Part shown: positions 241 to 22,355 of the stretch, piece by piece
Layout of the letters: every line of letters begins with the position of its first letter
Numbering within the stretch: the stretch's first letter is position 1
Source: a virus
Lineage: Duplodnaviria > Heunggongvirae > Uroviricota > Caudoviricetes
DNA: 64,000 bases
IMG/VR virus record: IMGVR_UViG_638275430_000001
Span: 22,274-86,273 of that record
Reading direction: 5' to 3' (one strand)
Translations under genes and position numbers: made by a program
The notes under the pieces: model-generated
Seen by the model: the letters and a program-made list of their open reading frames with translations, nothing else
Told to the model about the DNA's origin: nothing
The model's database searches: none

Positions 241-263
241 AAAAGCCACCCGAAGGTGGCTCA
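241..263 (-). terminator. Intrinsic terminator with C(UUCG)G tetraloop hairpin (gccacc-ttcg-ggtggc + U-run on the minus transcript)
   Basis: aaaagccacccgaaggtggc. T-run on the minus strand. Identical stem recurs at 3840 and 7122. Confidence 0.7.
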
Positions 264-824
264 AATGTCAAGCGTCTTAGCTTTGATGTATCCAGTTTGT
301 TCGATGTACTGTTCTAACTCTTCCTTCGTCCACCGCTCTTTGTCAAGAGAAAGCACTTCCTTGATCTTTTCCTGATACTTTGTTCCCATTGCGTCATAAT
401 CTTTACCGCATCGATTTTCATAACGCTGTCTGGCCAACGATTCATCAATAGGAAATTCTACCATAACGAAATCATATTTCAATCGCTTGTACTCAATAAC
501 AGGTTTGTGTCCGTCTAAAATAACGTATTCATACCCCATAGACTCAAGCTGTTGTAGTGAGTGCTGCAACGCGCTGTTAAATTGTACTGCCGGAGTAGTC
601 TCGAAACAATGGTATGTGTGATTTGAACTCCTACATTTCTTATTTCGATCATATGCCCCGATTGCGCAGATTTTATCATTAAACTTGGTATAACTAACTG
701 TTGTTCCTTTAGGAGAAGGACAATCAATTTTATTTCTTGCATCCGGATTGAATTTATCTACCAGCGAATACATATAGGTAGTTTTTCCTGCACCAGGAAT
801 ACCTAATAGCATTATTACTCTCAT
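261..824 (-). CDS. P-loop kinase / NTPase (Walker A GIPGAGKTT)
   Basis: 187 aa. N-terminal GxxGxGKT motif. SD aagaggtaatATG. Early-type promoter GTTTACT..ATAATT upstream (about 835-880). Confidence 0.6.
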   Translation of the reverse strand: MRVIMLLGIPGAGKTTYMYSLVDKFNPDARNKIDCPSPKGTTVSYTKFNDKICAIGAYDRNKKCRSSNHTYHCFETTPAVQFNSALQHSLQQLESMGYEYVILDGHKPVIEYKRLKYDFVMVEFPIDESLARQRYENRCGKDYDAMGTKYQEKIKEVLSLDKERWTKEELEQYIEQTGYIKAKTLDI

Positions 825-885
825 ATTACCTCTTTAGTTTTTCATAACCTAATTATGGCATACTTTATTTGCAAAGTAAACATAA

Positions 886-907
886 GGCTCCCGAAGGAGC
901 CTTTATT
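886..907 (-). terminator. Hairpin terminator (ggctcc-ttcg-ggagcc + U-rich) after the 964-aa fiber gene
   Basis: ggctcccgaaggagcc followed by ttatgttt on the minus strand. Confidence 0.55.
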
Positions 908-3800
908 ACGCAAGTTCTAATCTGTGAGGTAGATATTGCAGTGCAGGCGCTGCACCCGATATCAAGTTATTATCGGTTGTTGCTGTACCAGAAGCGAATC
1001 CAGTTGCCGATATCAACTTGGGCAATTCAACCGCACCAGCGGTTTGCCATGTGTTTGCTGTTGTGTAATATTTGATTCCGAATGATCCGGTTGCACCGGC
1101 AGCGGCACCATCAAGATAATAAACAGTAACAGGTACAAACCAGATATTACCAGCAGCATCTTTGCCTAATATCAATTTGTAATATTCGGTCGGCACGGTT
1201 GCTGCTGCGACTGGGTCAACGTCACCTTGTCCACCGGTATATATATTATTCACGATAAACCCAGCGTTATTCAACGTGCTTTGTTTATTAGTTTCAAACT
1301 GAACTCCAGCAAATGCACCATCAAAGAATGTATCATTATCCGTACCGCCCACAACAGCACCAAATTTCTGAATTAAAAACCAGAATCTAGCTCGTTTCTC
1401 TGGGTCAGTTGAACCACATCGCAACGCAATATCACTGGCTGGTAGTGTATTCACATACGATTGGAAATAGAAATCAACTACGTGCTTTGTAGGACTATAA
1501 ACGTTTGTTGTATCTCTTGTAACGAAGTTCTTTGGATCACCAACTCCGGTATTAACGACTTCTGTTACAACTTTAGAACTTCCAATCTGACGAATCATCG
1601 CATAACTTGAACCTAATGAGTTGTCATCGCCATAAATTGTATGTCCACCACCGGTATCATAAGTAACTCGAACTTTTACCTGCATATCAGCCGTAGGTGT
1701 TACAATTGATCTAGCGATGGACTGTGTGCTAAAGTTTTCCGTTGATGTTGCTGCAACTTTACCTCCATATGTACCCGGTAATCTGTTATTAGCAGAATCA
1801 ACCCAGGTATATGCAAATCGTCCATTTGCCCCAAGTGAAGTAAACACATCACAAACTAACTCATACGTCTTATTTGCTTTCAGAGTAAACACACCGTTAT
1901 TATTAACAACTTCTCCAATCGAAGTCACATTAAACGCAAATGGCAAATCAAATTGTGTGTTGGTACCAGCAGCAGAATATCCAGTTGTGAATCTAGCAAG
2001 CAAGAAATCAGTTCTGTCGCCTTCTAATATAACAGTAGATCTATTATCAACAATATTTGAACCGTCAATTTCTTCTACCAGAATCCAAGTATCACCGCCA
2101 TCATTAGAGTTCTCGCCTCCAGCAACAATATTATGATTCTGTCCGGAATAAGCACAACGAAGACTGATCATATTATTTTCTGTTGGAGTAATATATGCAA
2201 TTCCAACCGGAGTATTTGTGTATGCAGTAGATCCCCAGATACTAGCGTACATCTGATCCGCTGGCCAAGACGCAGTTGTATCATTAAACACACCCCATCT
2301 AGCCCAACTTGTTCCTAATCCAGAAGCAGATATGTTATAAGTGATCTTATATGTATATCCAGATCTCAATGCAATTTGTGTTCCATTGCCTCTTGCAATA
2401 TTATCGCCAACGCTTCTAACTGTCGTCAGTGATAATATCGAGTTTAATGTTTGTGCCAATGCGGTAGCAGATAATTTAGCAAACATATGTCCACGAGCTG
2501 TGCCAGTTGCAGATGATGAAGTTAATTTCCAGTATCTAGTAGCAAGCACAAACTGATAACTATTACCAATGGGTGAGGTATAAGTTGCATTGTTTGCTGG
2601 ATTACTTGGGAACGTGATTGTTTCCATTTTGCCATCATAATCTGCCCATGAGTTATCCGGACGATGTAATAGAACTTGATTCAAGTTCATATCAAAGTAA
2701 ATCTTAACTCCGAATGTTGGTACACTATACGAATTTGTCAATCTATAGCTTGTGTATGACTGATTCATATCGACTGTGCCAAGTCTTACCCATTCTTTTC
2801 CAGCATTGAATATTTGACCAGGCGACACGTTTTTGGTACAAATATAAACTGCTTCCGCTAGTCCATATCTGACTAGATCTCCAGTATAATATTGACGGTC
2901 GATTTCAAATCCAACAATATTCAATGGCTCAAGTTTAGATAGATAATTCTGTAGACCGAATGCTGGCACATTACCAACCAACGGCATCCATTTTGTCATA
3001 TCCAGTTTGATTGTGTTTGTTGAATTCAAAGTCTGAGTCGAAATAACATAGCACATATAAAGTGTAATATCAGAATCATTCAACGCAATAACATCACCGA
3101 ATGTATAGTTAGTATTAACAGCGGGAACAACTCCTCTCCACACTGGTTGATATCTACCACCATTCAGTACCGGTCTGAATGTCTGTGTGTTACCAGAACC
3201 CCACGCGAAATTCGTACCAGCGACGATGGCCGCGTTGGCCTGCGCAATGATACCCTGATAAGATACAATCGCATTAGCATCGTATGAAAGACTGGTACTG
3301 AACACTGGTGCAGTTTTAAAGCCAGTCAGTTTTGTGAAGTAATTCAGTTCCGTAATTGCTTTGCCAACGCTAGTAATACTCGCACGATACAGATCTGTCC
3401 TGTAATAGAACATATCACCCTTGGCAATAACACGATCTAGTAGCGGGTTAATTTCATCCCAATCCGGTACGTTAGTAATTTCTGCCGCTGTTGTTAACTC
3501 TTTCCAGTTAGTTGATAATGTACCAACTACGAATGGAGTATCATACGGCATATCACCATTTGCGCGATATACTTTATTATCACGGTAACATAGATCGTCT
3601 TTGATCCAACTTCTTTGTTGTTTCCAATCCGGTACGTTTGCTGTTAATGCGGCTTCTGGCAATTGTGATTCCAGAATCTTACCATCGCTATCTGTAATAA
3701 CGATATGAGTGGAAGAAGCATCAGCCCAACGTCCATCATTCCACACTTTCGGAATGTTATCTTTGATTGGCTGTGTAACTAATGGTATTCTTTCTGCCAT
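906..3800 (-). CDS. Tail fiber protein, paralog B (964 aa). N-terminal ~115 aa homologous to the 1069-aa neighbour
   Basis: G/S/T/N-rich beta-type composition. Shared N-terminus MAERIPLV..PKVW..G.WADA. Late-promoter-like CTAAATAAT 27 nt upstream. SD caagaggattgacaaaATG. Confidence 0.75.
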   Translation of the reverse strand: MAERIPLVTQPIKDNIPKVWNDGRWADASSTHIVITDSDGKILESQLPEAALTANVPDWKQQRSWIKDDLCYRDNKVYRANGDMPYDTPFVVGTLSTNWKELTTAAEITNVPDWDEINPLLDRVIAKGDMFYYRTDLYRASITSVGKAITELNYFTKLTGFKTAPVFSTSLSYDANAIVSYQGIIAQANAAIVAGTNFAWGSGNTQTFRPVLNGGRYQPVWRGVVPAVNTNYTFGDVIALNDSDITLYMCYVISTQTLNSTNTIKLDMTKWMPLVGNVPAFGLQNYLSKLEPLNIVGFEIDRQYYTGDLVRYGLAEAVYICTKNVSPGQIFNAGKEWVRLGTVDMNQSYTSYRLTNSYSVPTFGVKIYFDMNLNQVLLHRPDNSWADYDGKMETITFPSNPANNATYTSPIGNSYQFVLATRYWKLTSSSATGTARGHMFAKLSATALAQTLNSILSLTTVRSVGDNIARGNGTQIALRSGYTYKITYNISASGLGTSWARWGVFNDTTASWPADQMYASIWGSTAYTNTPVGIAYITPTENNMISLRCAYSGQNHNIVAGGENSNDGGDTWILVEEIDGSNIVDNRSTVILEGDRTDFLLARFTTGYSAAGTNTQFDLPFAFNVTSIGEVVNNNGVFTLKANKTYELVCDVFTSLGANGRFAYTWVDSANNRLPGTYGGKVAATSTENFSTQSIARSIVTPTADMQVKVRVTYDTGGGHTIYGDDNSLGSSYAMIRQIGSSKVVTEVVNTGVGDPKNFVTRDTTNVYSPTKHVVDFYFQSYVNTLPASDIALRCGSTDPEKRARFWFLIQKFGAVVGGTDNDTFFDGAFAGVQFETNKQSTLNNAGFIVNNIYTGGQGDVDPVAAATVPTEYYKLILGKDAAGNIWFVPVTVYYLDGAAAGATGSFGIKYYTTANTWQTAGAVELPKLISATGFASGTATTDNNLISGAAPALQYLPHRLELA

Positions 3801-3824
3801 TTTGTCAATCCTCTTGTTATATTG

Positions 3825-3833
3825 ATTATTTAG
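3825..3833 (-). promoter_or_regulatory. Putative late promoter CTAAATAAT (variant of T4 TATAAATA)
   Basis: Reverse complement of attatttag. Same motif and spacing upstream of the genes at 7073, 9764, 20887, 25315 and 37141. Confidence 0.45.
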
Positions 3834-3836
3834 AGA

Positions 3837-3860
3837 AAAGCCACCCGAAGGTGGCTTATT
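3837..3860 (-). terminator. C(UUCG)G hairpin terminator after the 1069-aa fiber gene
   Basis: aaaagccacccgaaggtggctt. Confidence 0.7.
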
Positions 3861-3863
3861 ATA

Positions 3864-6800
3864 TTATGACATTTTTGTGATTTTCCACCACATTCTATTA
3901 GATGATGGAGCGGCATTTGCTCCATTACCAACGGTAACATCAATTTTTAACTTGATGTCTCCTGCGGCTGTATTTGATACCAACGCACATCCAACAGAAG
4001 CGTCGCCATCTTTCCAAGATGATGATGTAGGCCAGAAACTAATAGTTTGTATGCCTCCAGTTAATGTGGCATTACTAACACTACCTAATGTTGAGTAGTA
4101 GTATCCATCTGCAATAGATCCATTTGACATTGCCCATTGCCATTCAAAAATATATTTCCCAGCGGGAAGAGTTAACGTTGATGTACCAACACCACTGACA
4201 CCAATTGAGTCTATCAATGAACTGAATATTGCTGAATATCCCGTGCTTGCGCCGGTGTTGGAGAATGTTCCCATTGCCATCTTCGGACTAACATACGCGG
4301 CAACCGCTCCGCTGTTTAGTGTAGTGACATCAAATCCAATTCCCCCTAATCCAAGCGTATTACCTCCCCCGACTGTTAGCGTCAACGGCAATGCAGGTAA
4401 AACTCCTATTTGAAGCCATACTAAGTTGTTAGTTGGTCCATTTGCAACGTAAGTTCCGGTAACGGATCCGGCTACCCAAACTCCGACATAATCTCCGATT
4501 TTAACTTGTGAACCGGGAGAAACGGAAGTAGTTCCACTCGCAAATGTTGTTGTGCTAACGAGATCAAACTTACCACCAGTGCTAAAAGAACTTTCGCCTA
4601 TTTGCGGACGCATAACAACAACTGCGCCAGATGATCCGTAATTGGGAATTCTAACAGTAGACAAAATACCGTCTACGTTTATTCTTGACTGACGATCAAG
4701 AAACACGTTTGGTCCACCCATAGTAGCATTTGGAGCTGGATTTTGTCCTTTAGTAACTACTCCCGTACTACTAGCAGCAGTCAACGGTTTCCATTCCCCA
4801 GATCCATAAAGAACATAGTCCTGTGTATTAAGTGGAGCGGCAGCAAGAGCACCAGCTTTACCTTGAACTGTTGCGGTAGATCCCTGGAATATTGGGAATG
4901 CGCCGGCTGTTCCGGATATCTGAACAACGGTCCACTGACTATAACCGTCGGATGTAGATGGATATGTTTTGTCGCGACTTCTAACTAACGCAATTTCCAA
5001 ATTTTTCGTGGGTGTATAAATGAAATTACCACCCTGTCCTCCGGTTGCTTGTGATGTACCGGATGCATCAGAAATTAACAACTCACCTGGATCAATATAT
5101 AATCCGTCCGTGATGTTTCTCCATCTAAACGCGGCATATTCGGCTCCCGATACGTGTATAGATGTGGTAATCATATAAGTTTGATTTGCTTTTAGTTGCA
5201 CTCTGTTGTTTGTGCATGTTATTCCGTAATTCTTCACGGAAACAATTGGCATCAAACTACCGGTAGTTTGAACGGTCTGAGCAACAGCAGAAATTGTACC
5301 ACTAACAAAAGGAATTTCGGAACTCAATAATTCGGCTGGATCTTTCCATTCTCCGTCACCAAACAGAATCTTTTTCTCGGCACCCGCAACAGGAGCAGCA
5401 ACTACACCCGGTTTACCAGGAGTCGTATTAGTTGCGCCTTGAAAAATAGGAAGACTACCATTAGATCCAGATATTTGCATCACGCTATATGAGCTAAACG
5501 GCTCATGCAATGCAACCGCACCTCCAGTTCGTTTCAGATAAATCGTTTCATTCACTGTTGGAGAATAAATGAATGTTGTACTAAGTGATCCAGCTTCATT
5601 TGCGGTATGTGTTACTGTTATTCCACTGAACGGAGCGGGGCCAATTAGTCCGGTTGTATTAACTGCATTATTATTTGACCATTGAAACGTTGCTGATCCT
5701 AGTGTCGATACAAGATAAACATTCGTGGAAATCAAGTATGTCTGATTTGCTTTTAAATTGATTCCGTTCGAAGTTATTGACATATCGCGTGATTGTGTTG
5801 CTGATAATGCGACAACTGTTCCGTTCGATACGTTCGCCGCTTGTGTTAGTCTGCCCTGAATATAAGGAACATCTGATAATACACTTCCACCTCCGCTTCC
5901 AACTTTCTTCCATGTTGCACCCGTTGTTCCTTCTACAAATACGGTATTTGCGGGAATAGCCGCATTCGAGATATACAACTCTCCGTTGTTTCTAACGAGC
6001 TGCAATGCGTTGTAGGCTTGATTCGCAACGAAGTCAGTAACAGCCCCACCTCCCAGTGCTTTCCATGTTGCACCAGTCGTTCCAACAGCCCATAACGTAT
6101 TCGCAGGGATATCAGCGTTTGCGATATAAGTGTTTCCGTCTGTGTAGACGACTACTGTATTCTTTTTATATGCGCTCGCAAATTTCCAAACGTTATAAGT
6201 TAGATCGTCTGCTTTGGAAAGATAATTATCCAGTATAATCGGAGTATCGTTAATCAAAGGTGCCCAATATGCTGGAAGCGGAGTTGTTTCTGTTCCGATA
6301 GGAGGAGCAGATGCAGCAACACAAACGTAAAGAATATTGGATCTGGGCGTAGGGGCGATTACATCACCATAAAAGAAACCCTGACCATTAGCAGTCATCA
6401 CACCTCTCCAAGCATACTGCAAATATCCGTTGAATAGAACTGGACGCCATGTAACTGCTTGACCACTCGCTCCCCACTCAAATGGAACATTACCACCAAT
6501 GTTTGTGTTTGGTGTTACATAATATCCTTGCCAGCGAATAAGTTCACCGGCGGTATATGATTTGGTATACACATAAGATGGCGGCAACGTAAATCCTGTC
6601 AACTTTTCAAAATGATTAGTAGATGTTATTTCATTTCCTACGTTATTCGCCCGAGATCTATACAGCGAACCGCTGTAATAATACATTTCTCCTTCTCGAA
6701 TAGCGCGATCTATTCCAGGATTATATGCTGTCCAACTCGGAACGTTTGAAATTTCTGCCGCAGATGTAACGAGTTGCCAAGTCGCACCACCAGTAGATAT

Positions 6801-7073
6801 TACAAATGGAGTATTCGCAGGTATATCAGTATTAGCGCGATATACCTGTCCGATATGATAAGCCAACGCTCCTGCTTTCCATGACTTAGATTGTGCCCAT
6901 GTTGGAGCATTAGCAACAATTACTTCCTCAGGAATAACAGAACTTGAAATTTTACCATCGGTTCCCTTGGTAACAATATCAGTTGTTGGCGCATCAGCCC
7001 ATGCTCCATTTAGCCACACTTTTGGTGTAGTTGTTTTCGGAGGCTGTAAGACTAATGGAATTCTTTCTGCCAT
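3864..7073 (-). CDS. Tail fiber protein, paralog A (1069 aa) with internal tandem repeats
   Basis: N-terminus homologous to the 964-aa ORF. Three ~40-aa repeats of AN.DIPANT..V..T.GATW..V. Two tandem ~175-aa domains (aa ~405-580 and ~590-765). CTAAATAC upstream. SD caagaggacaataaaaATG. Confidence 0.75.
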   Translation of the reverse strand: MAERIPLVLQPPKTTTPKVWLNGAWADAPTTDIVTKGTDGKISSSVIPEEVIVANAPTWAQSKSWKAGALAYHIGQVYRANTDIPANTPFVISTGGATWQLVTSAAEISNVPSWTAYNPGIDRAIREGEMYYYSGSLYRSRANNVGNEITSTNHFEKLTGFTLPPSYVYTKSYTAGELIRWQGYYVTPNTNIGGNVPFEWGASGQAVTWRPVLFNGYLQYAWRGVMTANGQGFFYGDVIAPTPRSNILYVCVAASAPPIGTETTPLPAYWAPLINDTPIILDNYLSKADDLTYNVWKFASAYKKNTVVVYTDGNTYIANADIPANTLWAVGTTGATWKALGGGAVTDFVANQAYNALQLVRNNGELYISNAAIPANTVFVEGTTGATWKKVGSGGGSVLSDVPYIQGRLTQAANVSNGTVVALSATQSRDMSITSNGINLKANQTYLISTNVYLVSTLGSATFQWSNNNAVNTTGLIGPAPFSGITVTHTANEAGSLSTTFIYSPTVNETIYLKRTGGAVALHEPFSSYSVMQISGSNGSLPIFQGATNTTPGKPGVVAAPVAGAEKKILFGDGEWKDPAELLSSEIPFVSGTISAVAQTVQTTGSLMPIVSVKNYGITCTNNRVQLKANQTYMITTSIHVSGAEYAAFRWRNITDGLYIDPGELLISDASGTSQATGGQGGNFIYTPTKNLEIALVRSRDKTYPSTSDGYSQWTVVQISGTAGAFPIFQGSTATVQGKAGALAAAPLNTQDYVLYGSGEWKPLTAASSTGVVTKGQNPAPNATMGGPNVFLDRQSRINVDGILSTVRIPNYGSSGAVVVMRPQIGESSFSTGGKFDLVSTTTFASGTTSVSPGSQVKIGDYVGVWVAGSVTGTYVANGPTNNLVWLQIGVLPALPLTLTVGGGNTLGLGGIGFDVTTLNSGAVAAYVSPKMAMGTFSNTGASTGYSAIFSSLIDSIGVSGVGTSTLTLPAGKYIFEWQWAMSNGSIADGYYYSTLGSVSNATLTGGIQTISFWPTSSSWKDGDASVGCALVSNTAAGDIKLKIDVTVGNGANAAPSSNRMWWKITKMS

Positions 7074-7098
7074 TTTTATTGTCCTCTTGTTATATTGA

Positions 7099-7106
7099 GT
7101 ATTTAG
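7099..7106 (-). promoter_or_regulatory. Putative late promoter CTAAATAC
   Basis: Reverse complement of gtatttag, about 27 nt upstream of the ATG at 7073. Confidence 0.4.
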
Positions 7107-7121
7107 TGTAAAAACAAAAAA

Positions 7122-7142
7122 GCCACCCGAAGGTGGCTAATT
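7122..7142 (-). terminator. C(UUCG)G hairpin terminator
   Basis: gccacccgaaggtggc directly after the stop of the 773-aa gene. Confidence 0.7.
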
Positions 7143-7144
7143 AA

Positions 7145-9466
7145 TTAAGGTGTAACGATTATTTCTTCCAGATAAGGAACACCTGCATCCATAATAAGCT
7201 TATATTTCTTGGCTGTAGCAGCATCGGTAATTACGTCAGACGCAACTTCCTCTTCTACCAACTTGTTACCAACAACAACACGACGTTTTCCGTCATTTGT
7301 CGCTGGCTTAGCAAGTGCACCAACCATATCTGCTGTATAATCACCGGCTTGTGGAACAACGTTACCAGTTCTTGTATTGAATCCAGTTACAGATGTTGCA
7401 ACAGAACCGCCGTAAGTCCAGTTCGCTTTGATGTTAGGCAATGCGAATGCGTCCAAATACCACTGATCTTGGGTGTCAATCTGAATCGCAATAGTGAATC
7501 TATTTGCAACAGGCAAAGACAATCTAGCAGTTTCATTTGCAACGCTTACACGACGCAGTGTATCGATAGGAGGCAATTGCTCTACAGATACCTTACCGTC
7601 TTCACCCAATTTCGCAGCACCGTTAGGCACACCGAGTTTTACAGCACCATCGTTCTCGGCACTAGCTGGACGAACGTAAAGTTCACCAGTCGCGCTTACC
7701 AGCGTGTTACGGCCAGGCATAACGATTCCAAGCTCGGTCGGTTTAGCAACGTTCGCTAGATTTCGTTCAAGATAGAATGTGTTTGGATCAACTAGATTCA
7801 GGAACGATTCATTCTCTCCGATGTTTCGCATAATAACGAGTTTGTCGCCCGCTTTAAATGCTAACCCACCATAGTTAATCTCACGATCCGATCTCCAGTA
7901 GTCGTTCTTTGTCGCGGGAACGAATTGAGTCAAGTCTCTAGTGAAATTGATATCACCGCGCATTGTACCAACTTTAAATGTATCAGCATCTTTCAATGCG
8001 TTAATACTCAGTCGATTTGCACCTTGTAGAGTCTCAAGCATTCTAGCAACATCTGCACCATCTTCTTTGTTGATAATATCAACGGCACGGAAACGCATCA
8101 AATCCACAACTCGCCATGGTTCAGTTGGAACGGTTGTACCACCATAACACTTAATTGGAGTACCATCCGGTTTTACAACACGAACGTTAAGAATATTACC
8201 GGGCTGAACAAACAAGTTTCCCTGATAGTTAATCAGTTCTTCCTGTCTATCTACTAATTCCGCATTCTTCACAGTCTGAGAATAAATTAGAGTCAGTCCA
8301 CCTTGTGACCATATTTGGAATTTAATATCACCGACGTAATTCTCCGCAGGCATAAGAGCCATTCTAAGAATAGCCATTCTCGCTGGATATGGACGAGTGA
8401 AATTATAATCCACGATTTGTCCATAATCGATATCACCGTTAAACGGAACTCTGTTCTCTCTTGCCTCAAATACAACCTCAGCAGCACCATAAATGCTTAG
8501 TCCGTCGTTTGATATACCTTGCCAAACTGGATAGAAGTTATCACCCGTGAACACATTTCGAAACGCCATATTCTCGTTGTTAGAAATGATTTTATGTCCA
8601 CCGATATCAATAACGTTTCTGTCTTCGGCATTTACACCGAATGGAATAGCTTTGAATCTCTGTGCTGGTGTCCATGAATGTTGATTGTCATTACTGAAAC
8701 GAACATATTCATGAATACCATCTTGGAAGAATGATGTCCACGGACCCAATTCGGATGCAGAATATTGAGCAATAAAACTCAATCCATCTTGAGCAACGAA
8801 TCTAAATGGAGCGTCAAAGGTTAATCCACTATTAATAGAGATTCTTCCCCATTGTCTGAGATCTTTATCAAACGTGGTAGACCAAGGACCAGTCTCAGTT
8901 TCTCCATATTGATACACGATAGTATCCGCACTGATTTTAAATCCAGCAGTATAATCGATTCCTTCATTTACACTCATTCGTGCGTATTTGTGAGTTGCTT
9001 GATCGAAAGTGTTCACCCAATCAGAAATACCATTAATTGAATACTGATACTTGACTTTATCAGCAACTAACTTGAATCCCTTTGACCAACTAACTTGATC
9101 GTCTCGACTGAATCGAATATATTTGCTATTATCATCGGGCACTCCAAACCAGCCAGCGTCTCCCGGAGGATTATCTGCGCTATATTGAATAGAAACATCG
9201 AATCCGTCTTTACCCGCGGCACCTACAGCACCAGTGATAACAGCCGTTATTTCTTTCCAAGACGTATCTGCTTTTTTGTATTGGAATAATTGATATGTTC
9301 CCGGAGCAGTTGTGATCAATACAATAAGATCATCGAGCAAGCGTCCTGGATTATTTGTGAAAAACGTATCTCTAGCGGCAGTGCTTGCGAATCTCAAGTC
9401 GTTAGGAACAACAAGAGAGCCACCGCCCGCTCCACCAGATCCACCGCCTAAAACTATAAATGGCAT
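7145..9466 (-). CDS. Virion structural protein (773 aa), tail-fiber/baseplate-associated, with 4 tandem ~45-aa repeats
   Basis: Gly-rich N-terminus (GGGSGGAGGGS). Repeats ..QYS....GPW...F......Y.R.S...G......FK. at aa ~90-275. SD ataaggagaatgaaATG. Confidence 0.6.
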   Translation of the reverse strand: MPFIVLGGGSGGAGGGSLVVPNDLRFASTAARDTFFTNNPGRLLDDLIVLITTAPGTYQLFQYKKADTSWKEITAVITGAVGAAGKDGFDVSIQYSADNPPGDAGWFGVPDDNSKYIRFSRDDQVSWSKGFKLVADKVKYQYSINGISDWVNTFDQATHKYARMSVNEGIDYTAGFKISADTIVYQYGETETGPWSTTFDKDLRQWGRISINSGLTFDAPFRFVAQDGLSFIAQYSASELGPWTSFFQDGIHEYVRFSNDNQHSWTPAQRFKAIPFGVNAEDRNVIDIGGHKIISNNENMAFRNVFTGDNFYPVWQGISNDGLSIYGAAEVVFEARENRVPFNGDIDYGQIVDYNFTRPYPARMAILRMALMPAENYVGDIKFQIWSQGGLTLIYSQTVKNAELVDRQEELINYQGNLFVQPGNILNVRVVKPDGTPIKCYGGTTVPTEPWRVVDLMRFRAVDIINKEDGADVARMLETLQGANRLSINALKDADTFKVGTMRGDINFTRDLTQFVPATKNDYWRSDREINYGGLAFKAGDKLVIMRNIGENESFLNLVDPNTFYLERNLANVAKPTELGIVMPGRNTLVSATGELYVRPASAENDGAVKLGVPNGAAKLGEDGKVSVEQLPPIDTLRRVSVANETARLSLPVANRFTIAIQIDTQDQWYLDAFALPNIKANWTYGGSVATSVTGFNTRTGNVVPQAGDYTADMVGALAKPATNDGKRRVVVGNKLVEEEVASDVITDAATAKKYKLIMDAGVPYLEEIIVTP

Positions 9467-9476
9467 TTCATTCTCC

Positions 9477-9764
9477 TTATAATTTCGATACGCTTAGTTC
9501 GATTGTAGCAACATCGCTTTCTGATCTACACCAAACTTCAAGACTTCCAGATGAAGCAATTACTTGTGATCCGAAATACATTCTACCGTTAAGCATATCT
9601 CCGTCTCTGCTAGACTCTAACGGTCTGGTGCCTTCTGCCAAAATACCAGCAACTCTAGGATTTAAGTTTTGAATTTTGAACTGAGTGCCGACTGGAATAT
9701 TTGCAGTCGCATTCAGAGAAACCCAAGACTTACCAACAGTTGCGTTTGGAATTGTCTGTGACAT
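9477..9764 (-). CDS. Small structural protein (95 aa)
   Basis: SD caggagaaATG. CTAAATAAT late-type motif upstream. Terminator upstream. Confidence 0.6.
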   Translation of the reverse strand: MSQTIPNATVGKSWVSLNATANIPVGTQFKIQNLNPRVAGILAEGTRPLESSRDGDMLNGRMYFGSQVIASSGSLEVWCRSESDVATIELSVSKL

Positions 9765-9793
9765 TCAAATTTCTCCTGTGATTGTTTTCTATT

Positions 9794-9802
9794 ATTTAGA
9801 TA
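9794..9802 (-). promoter_or_regulatory. Putative late promoter CTAAATAAT
   Basis: Reverse complement of attatttag, about 27 nt upstream of the ATG at 9764. Confidence 0.45.
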
Positions 9803-9810
9803 AACAAAAA

Positions 9811-9830
9811 GGGAGCCGAAGCTCCCTTTT
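9811..9830. terminator. Hairpin gggagc-cgaa-gctccc flanked by A-run and T-run (bidirectional)
   Basis: aaaaagggagccgaagctccctttt. Separates the early block from the late structural block. Confidence 0.7.
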
Positions 9831-20933: not shown

Positions 20934-22355
20934 TTAGTATCTCAGAGACTTATATTGATCCGTCGCTACCATAAGTTTGAACTTATCAACTTCGGACTTT
21001 TTGACTTTAAACAACATCTTTTCTTTCTTTCCCATAGGGACTGTCGGCAGCGCGATTTCGATGCACAGATTACCCATACGAATAGGCTCTTTGTACGGAG
21101 TAGCCGAGTTAACGTTATCAACGAACATCGGATAAATGCGACCGGTGCCAGTTCTTTCTTGTGCGAACAGATTGAACAACTCGGAGGCTTTGATACGCTT
21201 CTTACGACACCAAGGCTCGTTTTCCAGCATTTCGTACAGCTCTTTGAACTTCACCGGATCTTTATAAAAGAGATCGTAAAGCTCGCCGTTTTGAACGTCT
21301 GGACTAAAGAGCGTGATATAGTCGTCATTTTTCAGACGCTCGAAAAACAGCTTGTTGATTTGGATACCGTAGTCAAGCTGGCGAATTCGATTTTCTTCCA
21401 CGCCCTTGTTGTTTTTCAGAACAAGGATTTTTTCAACTTCAAGATGCCACATTGGATAGTAAAGAGTAGCAGCGCCACCGCGTACACCACCCTGTGAGCA
21501 ACTTTTTACCGCAGTCTGGAAATATTTCCAGAACGGAATAATACCAGTGTGGCGAACTTCACCACTTCGAATGCGAGAACCTTCGGCACGAATAGCGCCA
21601 CCGTTGATACCGATACCAGCGCGTTTGCTAATATAGTCAACGATTGAACTTGCGGTAGCGTTAATGCTATCGAGTTCGTCGCCGCTTTCGATCTTCACGC
21701 ATGAGCTAAACTGGCGAGTCGGGGTTCGAACACCAGCAAGAATTGGCGTCGGTAGACTCAGTTTGCCCAACGATGTTACGTCATAAAAGTTTTTAACTTT
21801 AGCGATTCTATCTGTTTTTTCGTCTTGATGCAAGCACATTGCAACAAGCATATACAGAATTTGAGGTGTTTCGTAAATCTGATCGGTACTACGATCTTTC
21901 GCCAGGTACTTCTCTTTAAACTGCATTACGCCAGCATAAGCAAGATCAAAATCGCGATCATGCTTGATATAGGCATTCAGTTCATTGAATTCATCATCTG
22001 TCCATTTGATGGCAAGATCTTTATCATAGATGCCGTCTTGTACCAAGTCAAGTGTGTGTCGTTTCAGATGAATCGGGTCAAACTGATTGTAAACGTCTTT
22101 GCGAATCGCATACATTTGCAGACGAGCAGCGACGTATTGATAATCGGATTGTTCAATAGAGATACGATCTGCCGCAAATTTAATTGCCAGCTTCTGAATG
22201 TTCTTTGTGCTCATGCCGTCGGTGATAGAAGGCATAATACCGTTCAGGATTTCATTCGGATCGATTCGAGTTCCAGCAGTAGCGAATCCCAGAATTTTCA
22301 ACAGCTTTTTCGGCTCAAAATTCTCGGTTATCCCACTTGATTTTCTTACTAACAT
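20934..22355 (-). CDS. nrdA: Ribonucleotide reductase alpha subunit, N-terminal fragment (NrdA-a); ATP-cone plus catalytic core to ..CIEIALPT, then a 34-aa tail
   Basis: Collinear with NrdA aa 1 to ~440. Start MLVRKSSGITENFEP chosen (ATG 22353-22355). The track start 22397 has no SD and lies inside the promoter -10. Confidence 0.8.
   Translation of the reverse strand: MLVRKSSGITENFEPKKLLKILGFATAGTRIDPNEILNGIMPSITDGMSTKNIQKLAIKFAADRISIEQSDYQYVAARLQMYAIRKDVYNQFDPIHLKRHTLDLVQDGIYDKDLAIKWTDDEFNELNAYIKHDRDFDLAYAGVMQFKEKYLAKDRSTDQIYETPQILYMLVAMCLHQDEKTDRIAKVKNFYDVTSLGKLSLPTPILAGVRTPTRQFSSCVKIESGDELDSINATASSIVDYISKRAGIGINGGAIRAEGSRIRSGEVRHTGIIPFWKYFQTAVKSCSQGGVRGGAATLYYPMWHLEVEKILVLKNNKGVEENRIRQLDYGIQINKLFFERLKNDDYITLFSPDVQNGELYDLFYKDPVKFKELYEMLENEPWCRKKRIKASELFNLFAQERTGTGRIYPMFVDNVNSATPYKEPIRMGNLCIEIALPTVPMGKKEKMLFKVKKSEVDKFKLMVATDQYKSLRY

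Follow-up and report, generated by a model that had tools for sequence, protein, structure and literature searches.

Two adjacent genes of Aeromonas phage Aeh1, whose very long products start alike and end differently, raise the question of what their common N-terminus attaches to. They lie in a stretch of 64,000 nucleotides (nt), here called the window, which megablast places in the genome of this T4-like phage (NC_005260; Straboviridae, Cinqassovirus), with window position 1 at about position 22,274 of the record. Both open reading frames (ORFs), Aeh1p027 (906..3800, minus strand; 964 amino acids (aa)) and Aeh1p028 (3864..7073, minus strand; 1069 aa), begin with MAERIPLV, as a first-pass annotation made from the sequence alone had stated. 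Upstream of them on the same strand are Aeh1p029 (7145..9466, minus strand; 773 aa) and Aeh1p030 (9477..9764, minus strand), which encodes a small β-rich protein of 95 aa with a match to phrog_4770. All four genes are annotated as hypothetical. Judging from sequence comparisons, we regard it as probable, though by no means certain, that the genes at 906-9764 (minus strand) constitute a dispensable late accessory tail-fibre module, in which two alternative distal subunits dock on the tail of a 773-aa stalk. The first-pass annotation had already read the two large proteins as fibres with a common N-terminal module and different ends, and this part of its reading stands. It had also suggested that both attach to one site on the virion; the fusion proteins and the synteny described below indicate that the docking partner is more likely to be provided by the C-terminal end of the 773-aa protein than by the virion body.

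In the proposed fibre, the 773-aa protein would form the proximal stalk, and the 964-aa protein (distal subunit A) and the 1069-aa protein (distal subunit B) would use their leaders of ~57 aa to compete for its C-terminal end, each leader docking non-covalently within the final ~60 aa of the stalk protein. Behind the leader would follow a shaft of beads resembling carbohydrate-binding modules of the CBM5/12 type, two β-sandwich domains and a C-terminal tip that differs between the subunits, and virions would carry a mix of two tip specificities on one type of stalk. The tips and the β-sandwich domains might bind glycans or proteins on the surface of A. hydrophila. The gene junctions would bound and subdivide the cassette, providing each gene with its own late transcription and with short homologies for duplication, swapping and deletion. 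The trimeric nature of the fibre, the docking of the leaders, incorporation into virions, receptor binding and attachment of the 773-aa protein to the Aeh1 tail are all features that we infer.

Leader, bead shaft and distal domains

The N-terminal similarity of the two distal proteins, which the first-pass annotation had put at ~115 aa, is genuine and far above what chance or low-complexity bias would produce, but it is about three times as long. BLASTP aligns the two proteins with 40% identity across aa 1-363 (E 4e-72), and the identity in successive 30-aa blocks up to aa 360 is 66, 46, 50, 46, 46, 36, 36, 50, 25, 32, 16 and 26%, before it falls to 9% and then 3% in the next two blocks. The shared region of ~350 aa ends at about aa 350-360. 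It consists of a leader of ~57 aa and, behind it, a shaft of CBM5/12-like beads, a reading that rests on CBM_5_12-carrying homologues, end-to-end matches to the family model, confidently predicted modules and the structural matches of these modules. The shared part is thus mostly shaft and more than a mere anchor.

The leader comprises aa 1-57 of the 1069-aa protein (6903..7073, minus strand), precisely the part that is missing from fused relatives and is proposed to be the docking peptide, and aa 1-57 of the 964-aa protein (3630..3800, minus strand), where identity to the paralogue over the first 30 aa amounts to 66%. A leader consensus, M.(E/S)R(I/L).LV.QP.K...KVW.xGxW, is present in seven proteins, and within each phage the first eight residues of both paralogues are almost identical. 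The leader is much rarer than the beads behind it: a profile of aa 1-180 compared with 1.84 billion representative proteins gave 149 matches, only about nine of which carry the leader at their own N-terminus. Wherever their source can be traced, the leader-bearing matches stem from Aeromonas phages or chromosomal elements, and the other matches cover the bead module only. Only two matches, both weak, came from a word-indexed search for homologues of the N-terminal 360 aa.

The 1069-aa protein contains repeat units of 45-55 aa, three of them strong (aa 59-112, 296-355 and 348-403) and one weaker (aa 165-212). The first CBM5/12-like module (aa 59-103; 6765..6899, minus strand; Pfam CBM_5_12 E 0.003) is predicted with a local confidence score (pLDDT) of 83-89 and resembles chitin-binding domains in Foldseek; the modules at aa 296-343 and 348-395 (5889..6188, minus strand; pLDDT 81-89) are 61% identical to each other over 33 aa. 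The best single Aeh1 module matches positions 1-43 of the 44 positions of the Pfam model PF02839 with 17.9 bits (E 0.003), below the gathering threshold of 26.2 bits. That threshold is exceeded by the relatives av625 (29.9 bits), sal613 (37.7 bits), P0031 (40.2 bits) and P0006 (118 bits), the first three of which are leader-bearing, and most homologues found with the 1069-aa protein are Pfam CBM_5_12 carriers. Compared with Pfam as whole proteins, the 964-aa, the 1069-aa and the 773-aa protein matched no family at E<=1.

Structure prediction with AlphaFold2 was informative for the beads only. In the 1069-aa protein confidence is restricted to aa 55-103, 165-210 and 295-392 (pLDDT 77-89), and the remainder of the model is poor (mean pLDDT 45.0). 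The confident modules are predicted to adopt the three-stranded β fold of chitin-binding domains, and their Foldseek matches include the chitin-binding domain of Streptomyces ChiC (2d49; TMt 0.64, root-mean-square deviation (rmsd) 2.9 Å over 49 columns), Serratia ChiB and the carbohydrate-binding modules of a Vibrio chitin-oligosaccharide deacetylase. The same modules also match chains of the baseplate receptor-binding complex of phage Milano and tail fibres of phage 7-7-1. The short tail fibre of Milano has been described as a trimer built of small bead-like domains followed by a jelly-roll (PMC10811340).

Beyond the shaft, the two proteins do not diverge completely, contrary to the first-pass annotation. 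Their middle domains form a second BLASTP segment (24% identity, E 8e-6), and a hidden Markov model (HMM) built from the copies of the 1069-aa protein and a copy of the relative P0002 finds, with low scores, two matches in the 964-aa protein and two at equivalent positions in each relative of that protein. The domain of ~150 aa occurs in tandem in the 1069-aa protein (aa 400-577 and 585-762; 4788..5876, minus strand), the two copies being 31-40% identical to each other and alignable with eight further copies in relatives, and twice in the 964-aa protein (aa 449-548 and 628-716; 1653..2456, minus strand), where aa 609-717 also match phrog_12269; all ten copies from both distal proteins and their relatives align consistently. 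The bead repeats and the tandem duplication of the 1069-aa protein, which had been taken as a sign of recent domain accretion, are thus present, but with an identity of only 31-40% and the same two-copy arrangement in the paralogue and in prophage relatives, the duplication is, by sequence comparison, ancient. A profile of the β-sandwich domain gave nothing better than a marginal PA14-type match (E 0.002) and matched no Pfam family, and sequence searches of the PDB with the 964-aa, 1069-aa and 773-aa proteins gave no match.

Mutual similarity is absent only from the last ~215 aa of the 964-aa protein, whose order of leader, CBM5/12-like array and two β-sandwich domains is completed by a C-terminal domain ending in QYLPHRLELA, and from the last ~300 aa of the 1069-aa protein, in which leader, array and tandem β-sandwich domains are followed by an unrelated C-terminal region. 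The distal part of the 964-aa protein is 47-74% identical to the prophage and metagenomic relatives hyd849 (47% to aa 284-964) and P0043, and the homologue of the 964-aa protein in phage phiAS5 shows 53% identity. Pfam finds no Peptidase_S74 domain in the 964-aa and 1069-aa proteins, but one ends the leader-bearing relative P0096 (46.3 bits, E 5e-12). The Peptidase_S74 intramolecular chaperone is typical of trimeric fibres and spikes. A Collar domain suspected at the end of av625 was confirmed neither by Pfam nor by BLAST against the relative P0010.

The 773-aa protein as candidate stalk

Fusion, synteny and joint loss all indicate that the 773-aa gene belongs to the same system as the distal genes. 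In the metagenomic protein P0002 (1142 aa), aa 68-507 correspond to aa 291-712 of the 773-aa protein (E 6e-37) and aa 511-1034 to aa 58-595 of the 1069-aa protein (E 3e-46); P0010 has the same junction between the 773-aa body and a CBM array. In both, a CBM-like module begins within about 10 residues of the motif FxxRxGxVxPxxGDY, and fused proteins run on for 179-637 aa beyond GDY. All four split-type proteins, by comparison, those of Aeh1, phage avDM12 and two Aeromonas chromosomal elements, end 60-64 aa past this motif. Exactly two pieces are thus missing from the fused forms, the terminal ~60 aa of the 773-aa protein and the ~57-aa leader of the distal proteins, which is the pattern expected of a non-covalent joint. 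The C-terminal tail past the motif (aa 711-773 of the 773-aa protein; 7148..7336, minus strand) is the proposed acceptor of the leaders. In orf29C of VP16C, a further fused form, a CBM-like stretch lies ~45 residues past GDY, as seen by eye; BLAST against the distal proteins did not find this stretch.

Homologues of the 773-aa protein occur in avDM12 (74% identity) and in chromosomal elements of A. hydrophila and A. salmonicida (61% and 59% identity). In Aeh1, avDM12 and the two elements the gene stands directly before the leader-bearing distal gene or genes, and the intact proximal/distal pair is known from these four genomes only. In the chromosomal elements the homologue lies immediately downstream of genes for Dit and a J-like central tail fibre (phrog_31, E 2e-51), the C-terminus of which resembles that of HK97/lambda J, and it is followed at once by a single distal gene with a leader; bacterial genes lie a short distance further on. 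Two further Aeromonas phages have no 95-aa and 773-aa genes. In phiAS5 the 964-type gene is broken into four ORFs (locus L003, 8895-11915), the first break being due to one additional A within a run of CCAAAAAGT near codon 17, and in phiWae14 only a distal remnant of 102 aa and 108 aa is found.

These data also bear on whether the cluster encodes three independent fibres, the 964-aa and 1069-aa proteins sharing a socket on the virion through their common N-terminus and the 773-aa protein being a separate third fibre, which we consider unlikely, although it is the alternative that survives best. The conservation of the leader, with its nearly identical first eight residues in both paralogues of a phage, and the provision of every gene with its own promoter and terminator are what one would expect of such fibres. 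However, in fused relatives the body of the 773-aa protein continues into the CBM array precisely where the split lies, the pair is conserved over two tail architectures without an obvious common socket, and the distal genes are intact in neither of the two genomes without a 773-aa gene.

Several observations weigh against the stalk-and-tip arrangement or limit its support. The covariation of leader and tail is drawn from four genomes only, with phylogeny as a confounding factor, and the break in phiAS5 may be either a real pseudogene or a homopolymer sequencing error. In ORF163w of phage 44RR2.8t a KRRVxxG..VEE segment is internal, which suggests that part of the tail of the 773-aa protein is shaft and not interface. 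The AlphaFold2 models of the 773-aa protein (mean pLDDT 48.5) and the 1069-aa protein (mean pLDDT 45.0) are poor, also at the termini and in the distal domains. Finally, the N-terminus of the 773-aa protein is ~50% identical between the T4-like myovirus and the sipho-type elements, yet no common attachment partner was found for it, and a search for a shared docking partner showed no relative of the J-like C-terminus in Aeh1-like phages.

Fold matches of the 773-aa model (lambda gpJ with an rmsd of ~29 Å; TNF-like jelly rolls) were set aside on account of its low confidence. The longer motif FxxRxGxVxPxxGDYxAxxV, at about aa 690-725 of the 773-aa protein, recurs with 55-71% identity in contigs from distant bacteria (Oscillospiraceae, Clostridia and Gastranaerophilales; Firmicutes metagenome-assembled genomes, L015-L020) and is apparently a widespread fibre motif. 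Scans of IMG/VR and GTDB for further copies of the cluster yielded one truncated locus and six matches confined to the ubiquitous FxxRxGxVxPxxGDY.

Predicted late expression of the proposed module and its loss and exchange among relatives

The cluster sits in a variable region with a-gt.4 and gene 55, encoding the late sigma factor, on one side and a P-loop ORF and gene 47 on the other; the flanking genes are early and middle genes on the same strand. For an ORF of 187 aa downstream of the cluster (261-824, minus strand), RefSeq gives the name "clamp loader of DNA polymerase"; its Pfam matches are weak P-loop kinase/AAA matches only, all sub-threshold, and the name looks like annotation carry-over.

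That each distal gene possesses a late-type promoter and a UUCG terminator of its own, as the first-pass annotation had recognized, was borne out. UUCG-loop hairpins with a T-run close a-gt.4, the 773-aa, 1069-aa and 964-aa genes and the P-loop ORF, those 3' of both distal genes being of the GCCACCTTCGGGTGGC type. The sequence CTAAATA(A/C)T occurs at three sites in the 64 kb, each 20-30 nt upstream of a gene start, namely those of the 95-aa, 1069-aa and 964-aa genes. The junction before the 95-aa/773-aa operon (9793..9830, minus strand) combines a hairpin (9807-9830) with CTAAATA (9793-9799), that before the 1069-aa gene (7100..7138, minus strand) a UUCG hairpin (7121-7138) with CTAAATA (7100-7106), and that before the 964-aa gene (3827..3857, minus strand) a UUCG hairpin (3838-3857) with CTAAATA (3827-3833). 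A further UUCG hairpin terminator without a CTAAATA motif closes the cluster (884..903, minus strand). CTAAATA is the Aeh1-specific late-promoter consensus, and among the 15 predicted Aeh1 late promoters are Pl:29404, upstream of the 1069-aa gene, and Pl:32097, upstream of the 95-aa gene (Nolan et al. 2006, PMC1524935). The 95-aa and 773-aa genes are separated by a gap of 10 nt with no terminator in between and are co-transcribed, and together with the 1069-aa gene alone and the 964-aa gene alone they make up three putative late units. Between the two distal genes, the stretch from hairpin to ATG is 87% identical and codons 1-8 are 92% identical, compared with 57% for codons 9-60. In phiWae14 and in the chromosomal elements, the distal genes are preceded by the same junction of hairpin, CTAAATA and ribosome-binding site; in avDM12 the motif reads ATAAATA. 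An invertible segment or a diversity-generating mechanism was considered and dropped, since the two distal genes point in one direction and are each served by a promoter of their own.

Swapping of fibre cassettes among related phages, which the first-pass annotation had anticipated, is evident from sequence comparison. Across Aeh1 and avDM12, no fewer than four distinct distal regions follow one and the same N-module; avDM12 has kept the 95-aa gene and a 768-aa gene, and its two distal genes are intact but end differently. In P0043, a mosaic protein, identity to the 964-aa protein is 74% from aa 297 onwards and 30% before, the breakpoint falling at the end of the N-module. The C-terminal regions of sal613 (aa 330-613) and of the 686-aa protein of avDM12 (av686) share 67% identity. 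Phage Ah1, which belongs to the same genus as Aeh1, lacks the cluster, including both distal genes, except for an ORF of 114 aa (gp029; locus L005, 12044-12388). This ORF is a deletion scar: codons ~42-50 of the 95-aa gene run, without a change of frame, into the final ~80 codons of a 773-aa gene of the avDM12 type. The cluster is thus dispensable for a phage of this genus.

The chromosomal elements (L009 4270-16110 in A. hydrophila and L010 4280-15430 in A. salmonicida) contain a sipho-type tail-tip module. Four units in or just after it, the Dit-to-J operon, the 773-aa homologue, the distal fibre gene and an ORF of 171 aa, are each preceded by a G[GC]CACCTTCGGGTG[GC]C hairpin followed by CTAAATA, AGGAG and ATG, which is the syntax of Aeh1 late genes. 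L009, the only element compared in this respect, shares with Aeh1 an endonuclease VII (55% identity, gene 49 region), an ORF of 73 aa and an ORF of 121 aa. Such an element may represent a prophage or a satellite with links to the late transcription of T4-type phages. A further-reaching interpretation, to which we attach little weight, is that the fibre module is a portable late-expression cassette used on two tail architectures and moving between Aeh1-like phages and the sipho-type element, that the element is perhaps a satellite or parasite which swaps fibres with its helper, and that the shaft may tether particles to chitin.

It is also doubtful, and somewhat more so, that one of the paralogues is redundant or decaying and that a single distal fibre is functional. 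The locus is often decayed in relatives, and the published promoter search contained no site for the 964-aa gene and gave the site of the 1069-aa gene a low score of 4.4 (PMC1524935). On the other hand, both ORFs are intact over ~1000 codons and retain leader, ribosome-binding site, CTAAATA and terminator; avDM12 likewise has two intact distal genes, and other genomes encode counterparts of the distal region of the 964-aa protein with 47-74% identity.

The 95-aa protein could be an adaptor or chaperone of the fibre. Within this cluster its gene is found only in the T4-like versions, and the protein has no Pfam relative and no profile match in the PDB. Its family (phrog_4770; loci at 9477-9764, minus strand, in the window, L012 6995-7270 and L011 6995-7288) is represented in ~35 phages of Aeromonas, Vibrio and Pseudoalteromonas, 100-140 kb in size. 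In one of them, PWH3a-P1, the homologue directly precedes a 657-aa fibre-like "tail protein" and is located behind the head genes. In 44RR2.8t the interval between genes 23 and 24 (L006, 5640-6804) contains an ORF of 95 aa and a fibre-like ORF of 288 aa inserted in the head gene block, the latter with a GDYTADMV motif and a C-terminus resembling the P22 needle knob (phrog_1030, E 1e-37). The 95-aa ORF of 44RR (ORF162w) was rejected as a homologue of the Aeh1 protein, as no homology was detectable.

These arrangements in PWH3a-P1 and 44RR2.8t, together with a weak match of P0009 to Phage_cement_2, might suggest head or neck fibres, with the 95-aa protein anchoring the 773-aa stalk on the capsid or collar. 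We regard this as improbable: the 44RR ORF is not a recognizable relative, the Phage_cement_2 match is sub-threshold, the pair lies behind the J-like tail-tip gene in its closest relatives, and P0003, a CBM-array protein, occupies a fibre slot behind Mu-like baseplate genes and ahead of a muramidase. Late carbohydrate-binding proteins released at lysis, for example to bind chitin or host polysaccharide, without any role in the virion, are scarcely credible despite the resemblance of the CBM5/12-like arrays and β-sandwich domains to secreted glycan-binding modules, since neither a catalytic domain nor a signal peptide was seen in the sequences, Pfam searches were empty, and the architecture, the synteny with tail genes and the Peptidase_S74 relative all favour fibres.

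The proposed module among known fibre systems

The canonical long-tail-fibre locus of Aeh1 is located elsewhere, at 209-226 kb, and encodes gp34, a connector and two gp36/37-like proteins. Its presence, and the absence of the cluster from Ah1, mark the module as accessory, and BLASTP of the 95-aa, 773-aa, 964-aa and 1069-aa proteins against Aeh1p333-338 (gp34, connector, gp36/37-like) gave no match at E<=0.01. The two gp36/37-like genes (1358 and 1303 aa; record positions 217080-225602; L013 12081-20603) are themselves 69% identical over the first 52 aa and largely divergent thereafter, with short scattered similar segments and a small ORF behind each, and represent a second case of a shared N-terminus with different tips within the Aeh1 genome. 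If the proposal is correct, Aeh1 has an optional second fibre system with two tips beside a long-tail-fibre locus with two distal genes. Four long-hypothetical genes thereby gain a proposed function and a concrete docking hypothesis, which would be relevant to host-range prediction and to the engineering of Aeromonas phages for aquaculture, the conserved junction elements being natural swap points for new tips.

The long tail fibre of T4 (gp34, gp35/36, gp37) resembles the proposed fibre in having separately encoded proximal and distal segments, a non-covalent joint and late expression. The Aeh1 cluster, however, shows no similarity to the gp34, connector or gp36/37-like proteins and sits between genes 47 and 55. 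At the lambda stf/tfa locus the position is comparable for the pair in the chromosomal elements, which occupies the slot directly behind the J-like gene, but not for the Aeh1 cluster; moreover, the Aeh1-type fibre is split in two chains, and it has no Stf-typical Pfam families (E<=1), no PDB match and no recognizable Tfa-type chaperone. The beads share with CBM5/12 (PF02839) the module size of ~45 aa, the conserved aromatic pattern and the fold match, whereas the Aeh1 copies are sub-threshold in Pfam and serve as a repeated shaft element, with glycan binding being putative.

At the level of the junctions, the nearest counterparts are PeSL cassettes, combinations of terminator and promoter that have been proposed to mediate modular shuffling in T4-type phages (PMC2839356, PMC4122927). 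Both have a conserved stem-loop terminator and a promoter at gene boundaries within a hyperplastic region, and both show insertion, deletion and shuffling between relatives at those boundaries. In contrast to PeSL cassettes, the promoter of the Aeh1 junctions is the late CTAAATA and not an early promoter of the sigma-70 type, and the junction also occurs in chromosomal elements that are not T4-like.

Fibres with alternative distal proteins are known from the T5-like phage DT57C (LtfA/LtfB), from K1-5 and SP6, in which an adaptor carries two tailspikes, and from CBA120 (TSP1-4). Compared by description with these systems, and with no sequence relationship detected, the Aeh1 module is alike in the shared N-terminal attachment part, the differing distal ends and the cassette-swapped adjacent genes, and a broader host range is the expected outcome in both. 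It differs in that the shared part consists of a long CBM5/12-like shaft with a short leader, that the leaders are proposed to dock on the C-terminus of a separately encoded stalk protein of 773 aa, and that Aeh1 is a T4-like phage already equipped with a full set of long tail fibres. A shared N-terminus combined with variable receptor-binding ends is a well-established principle, to which the Aeh1 proteins add a family and not a concept.

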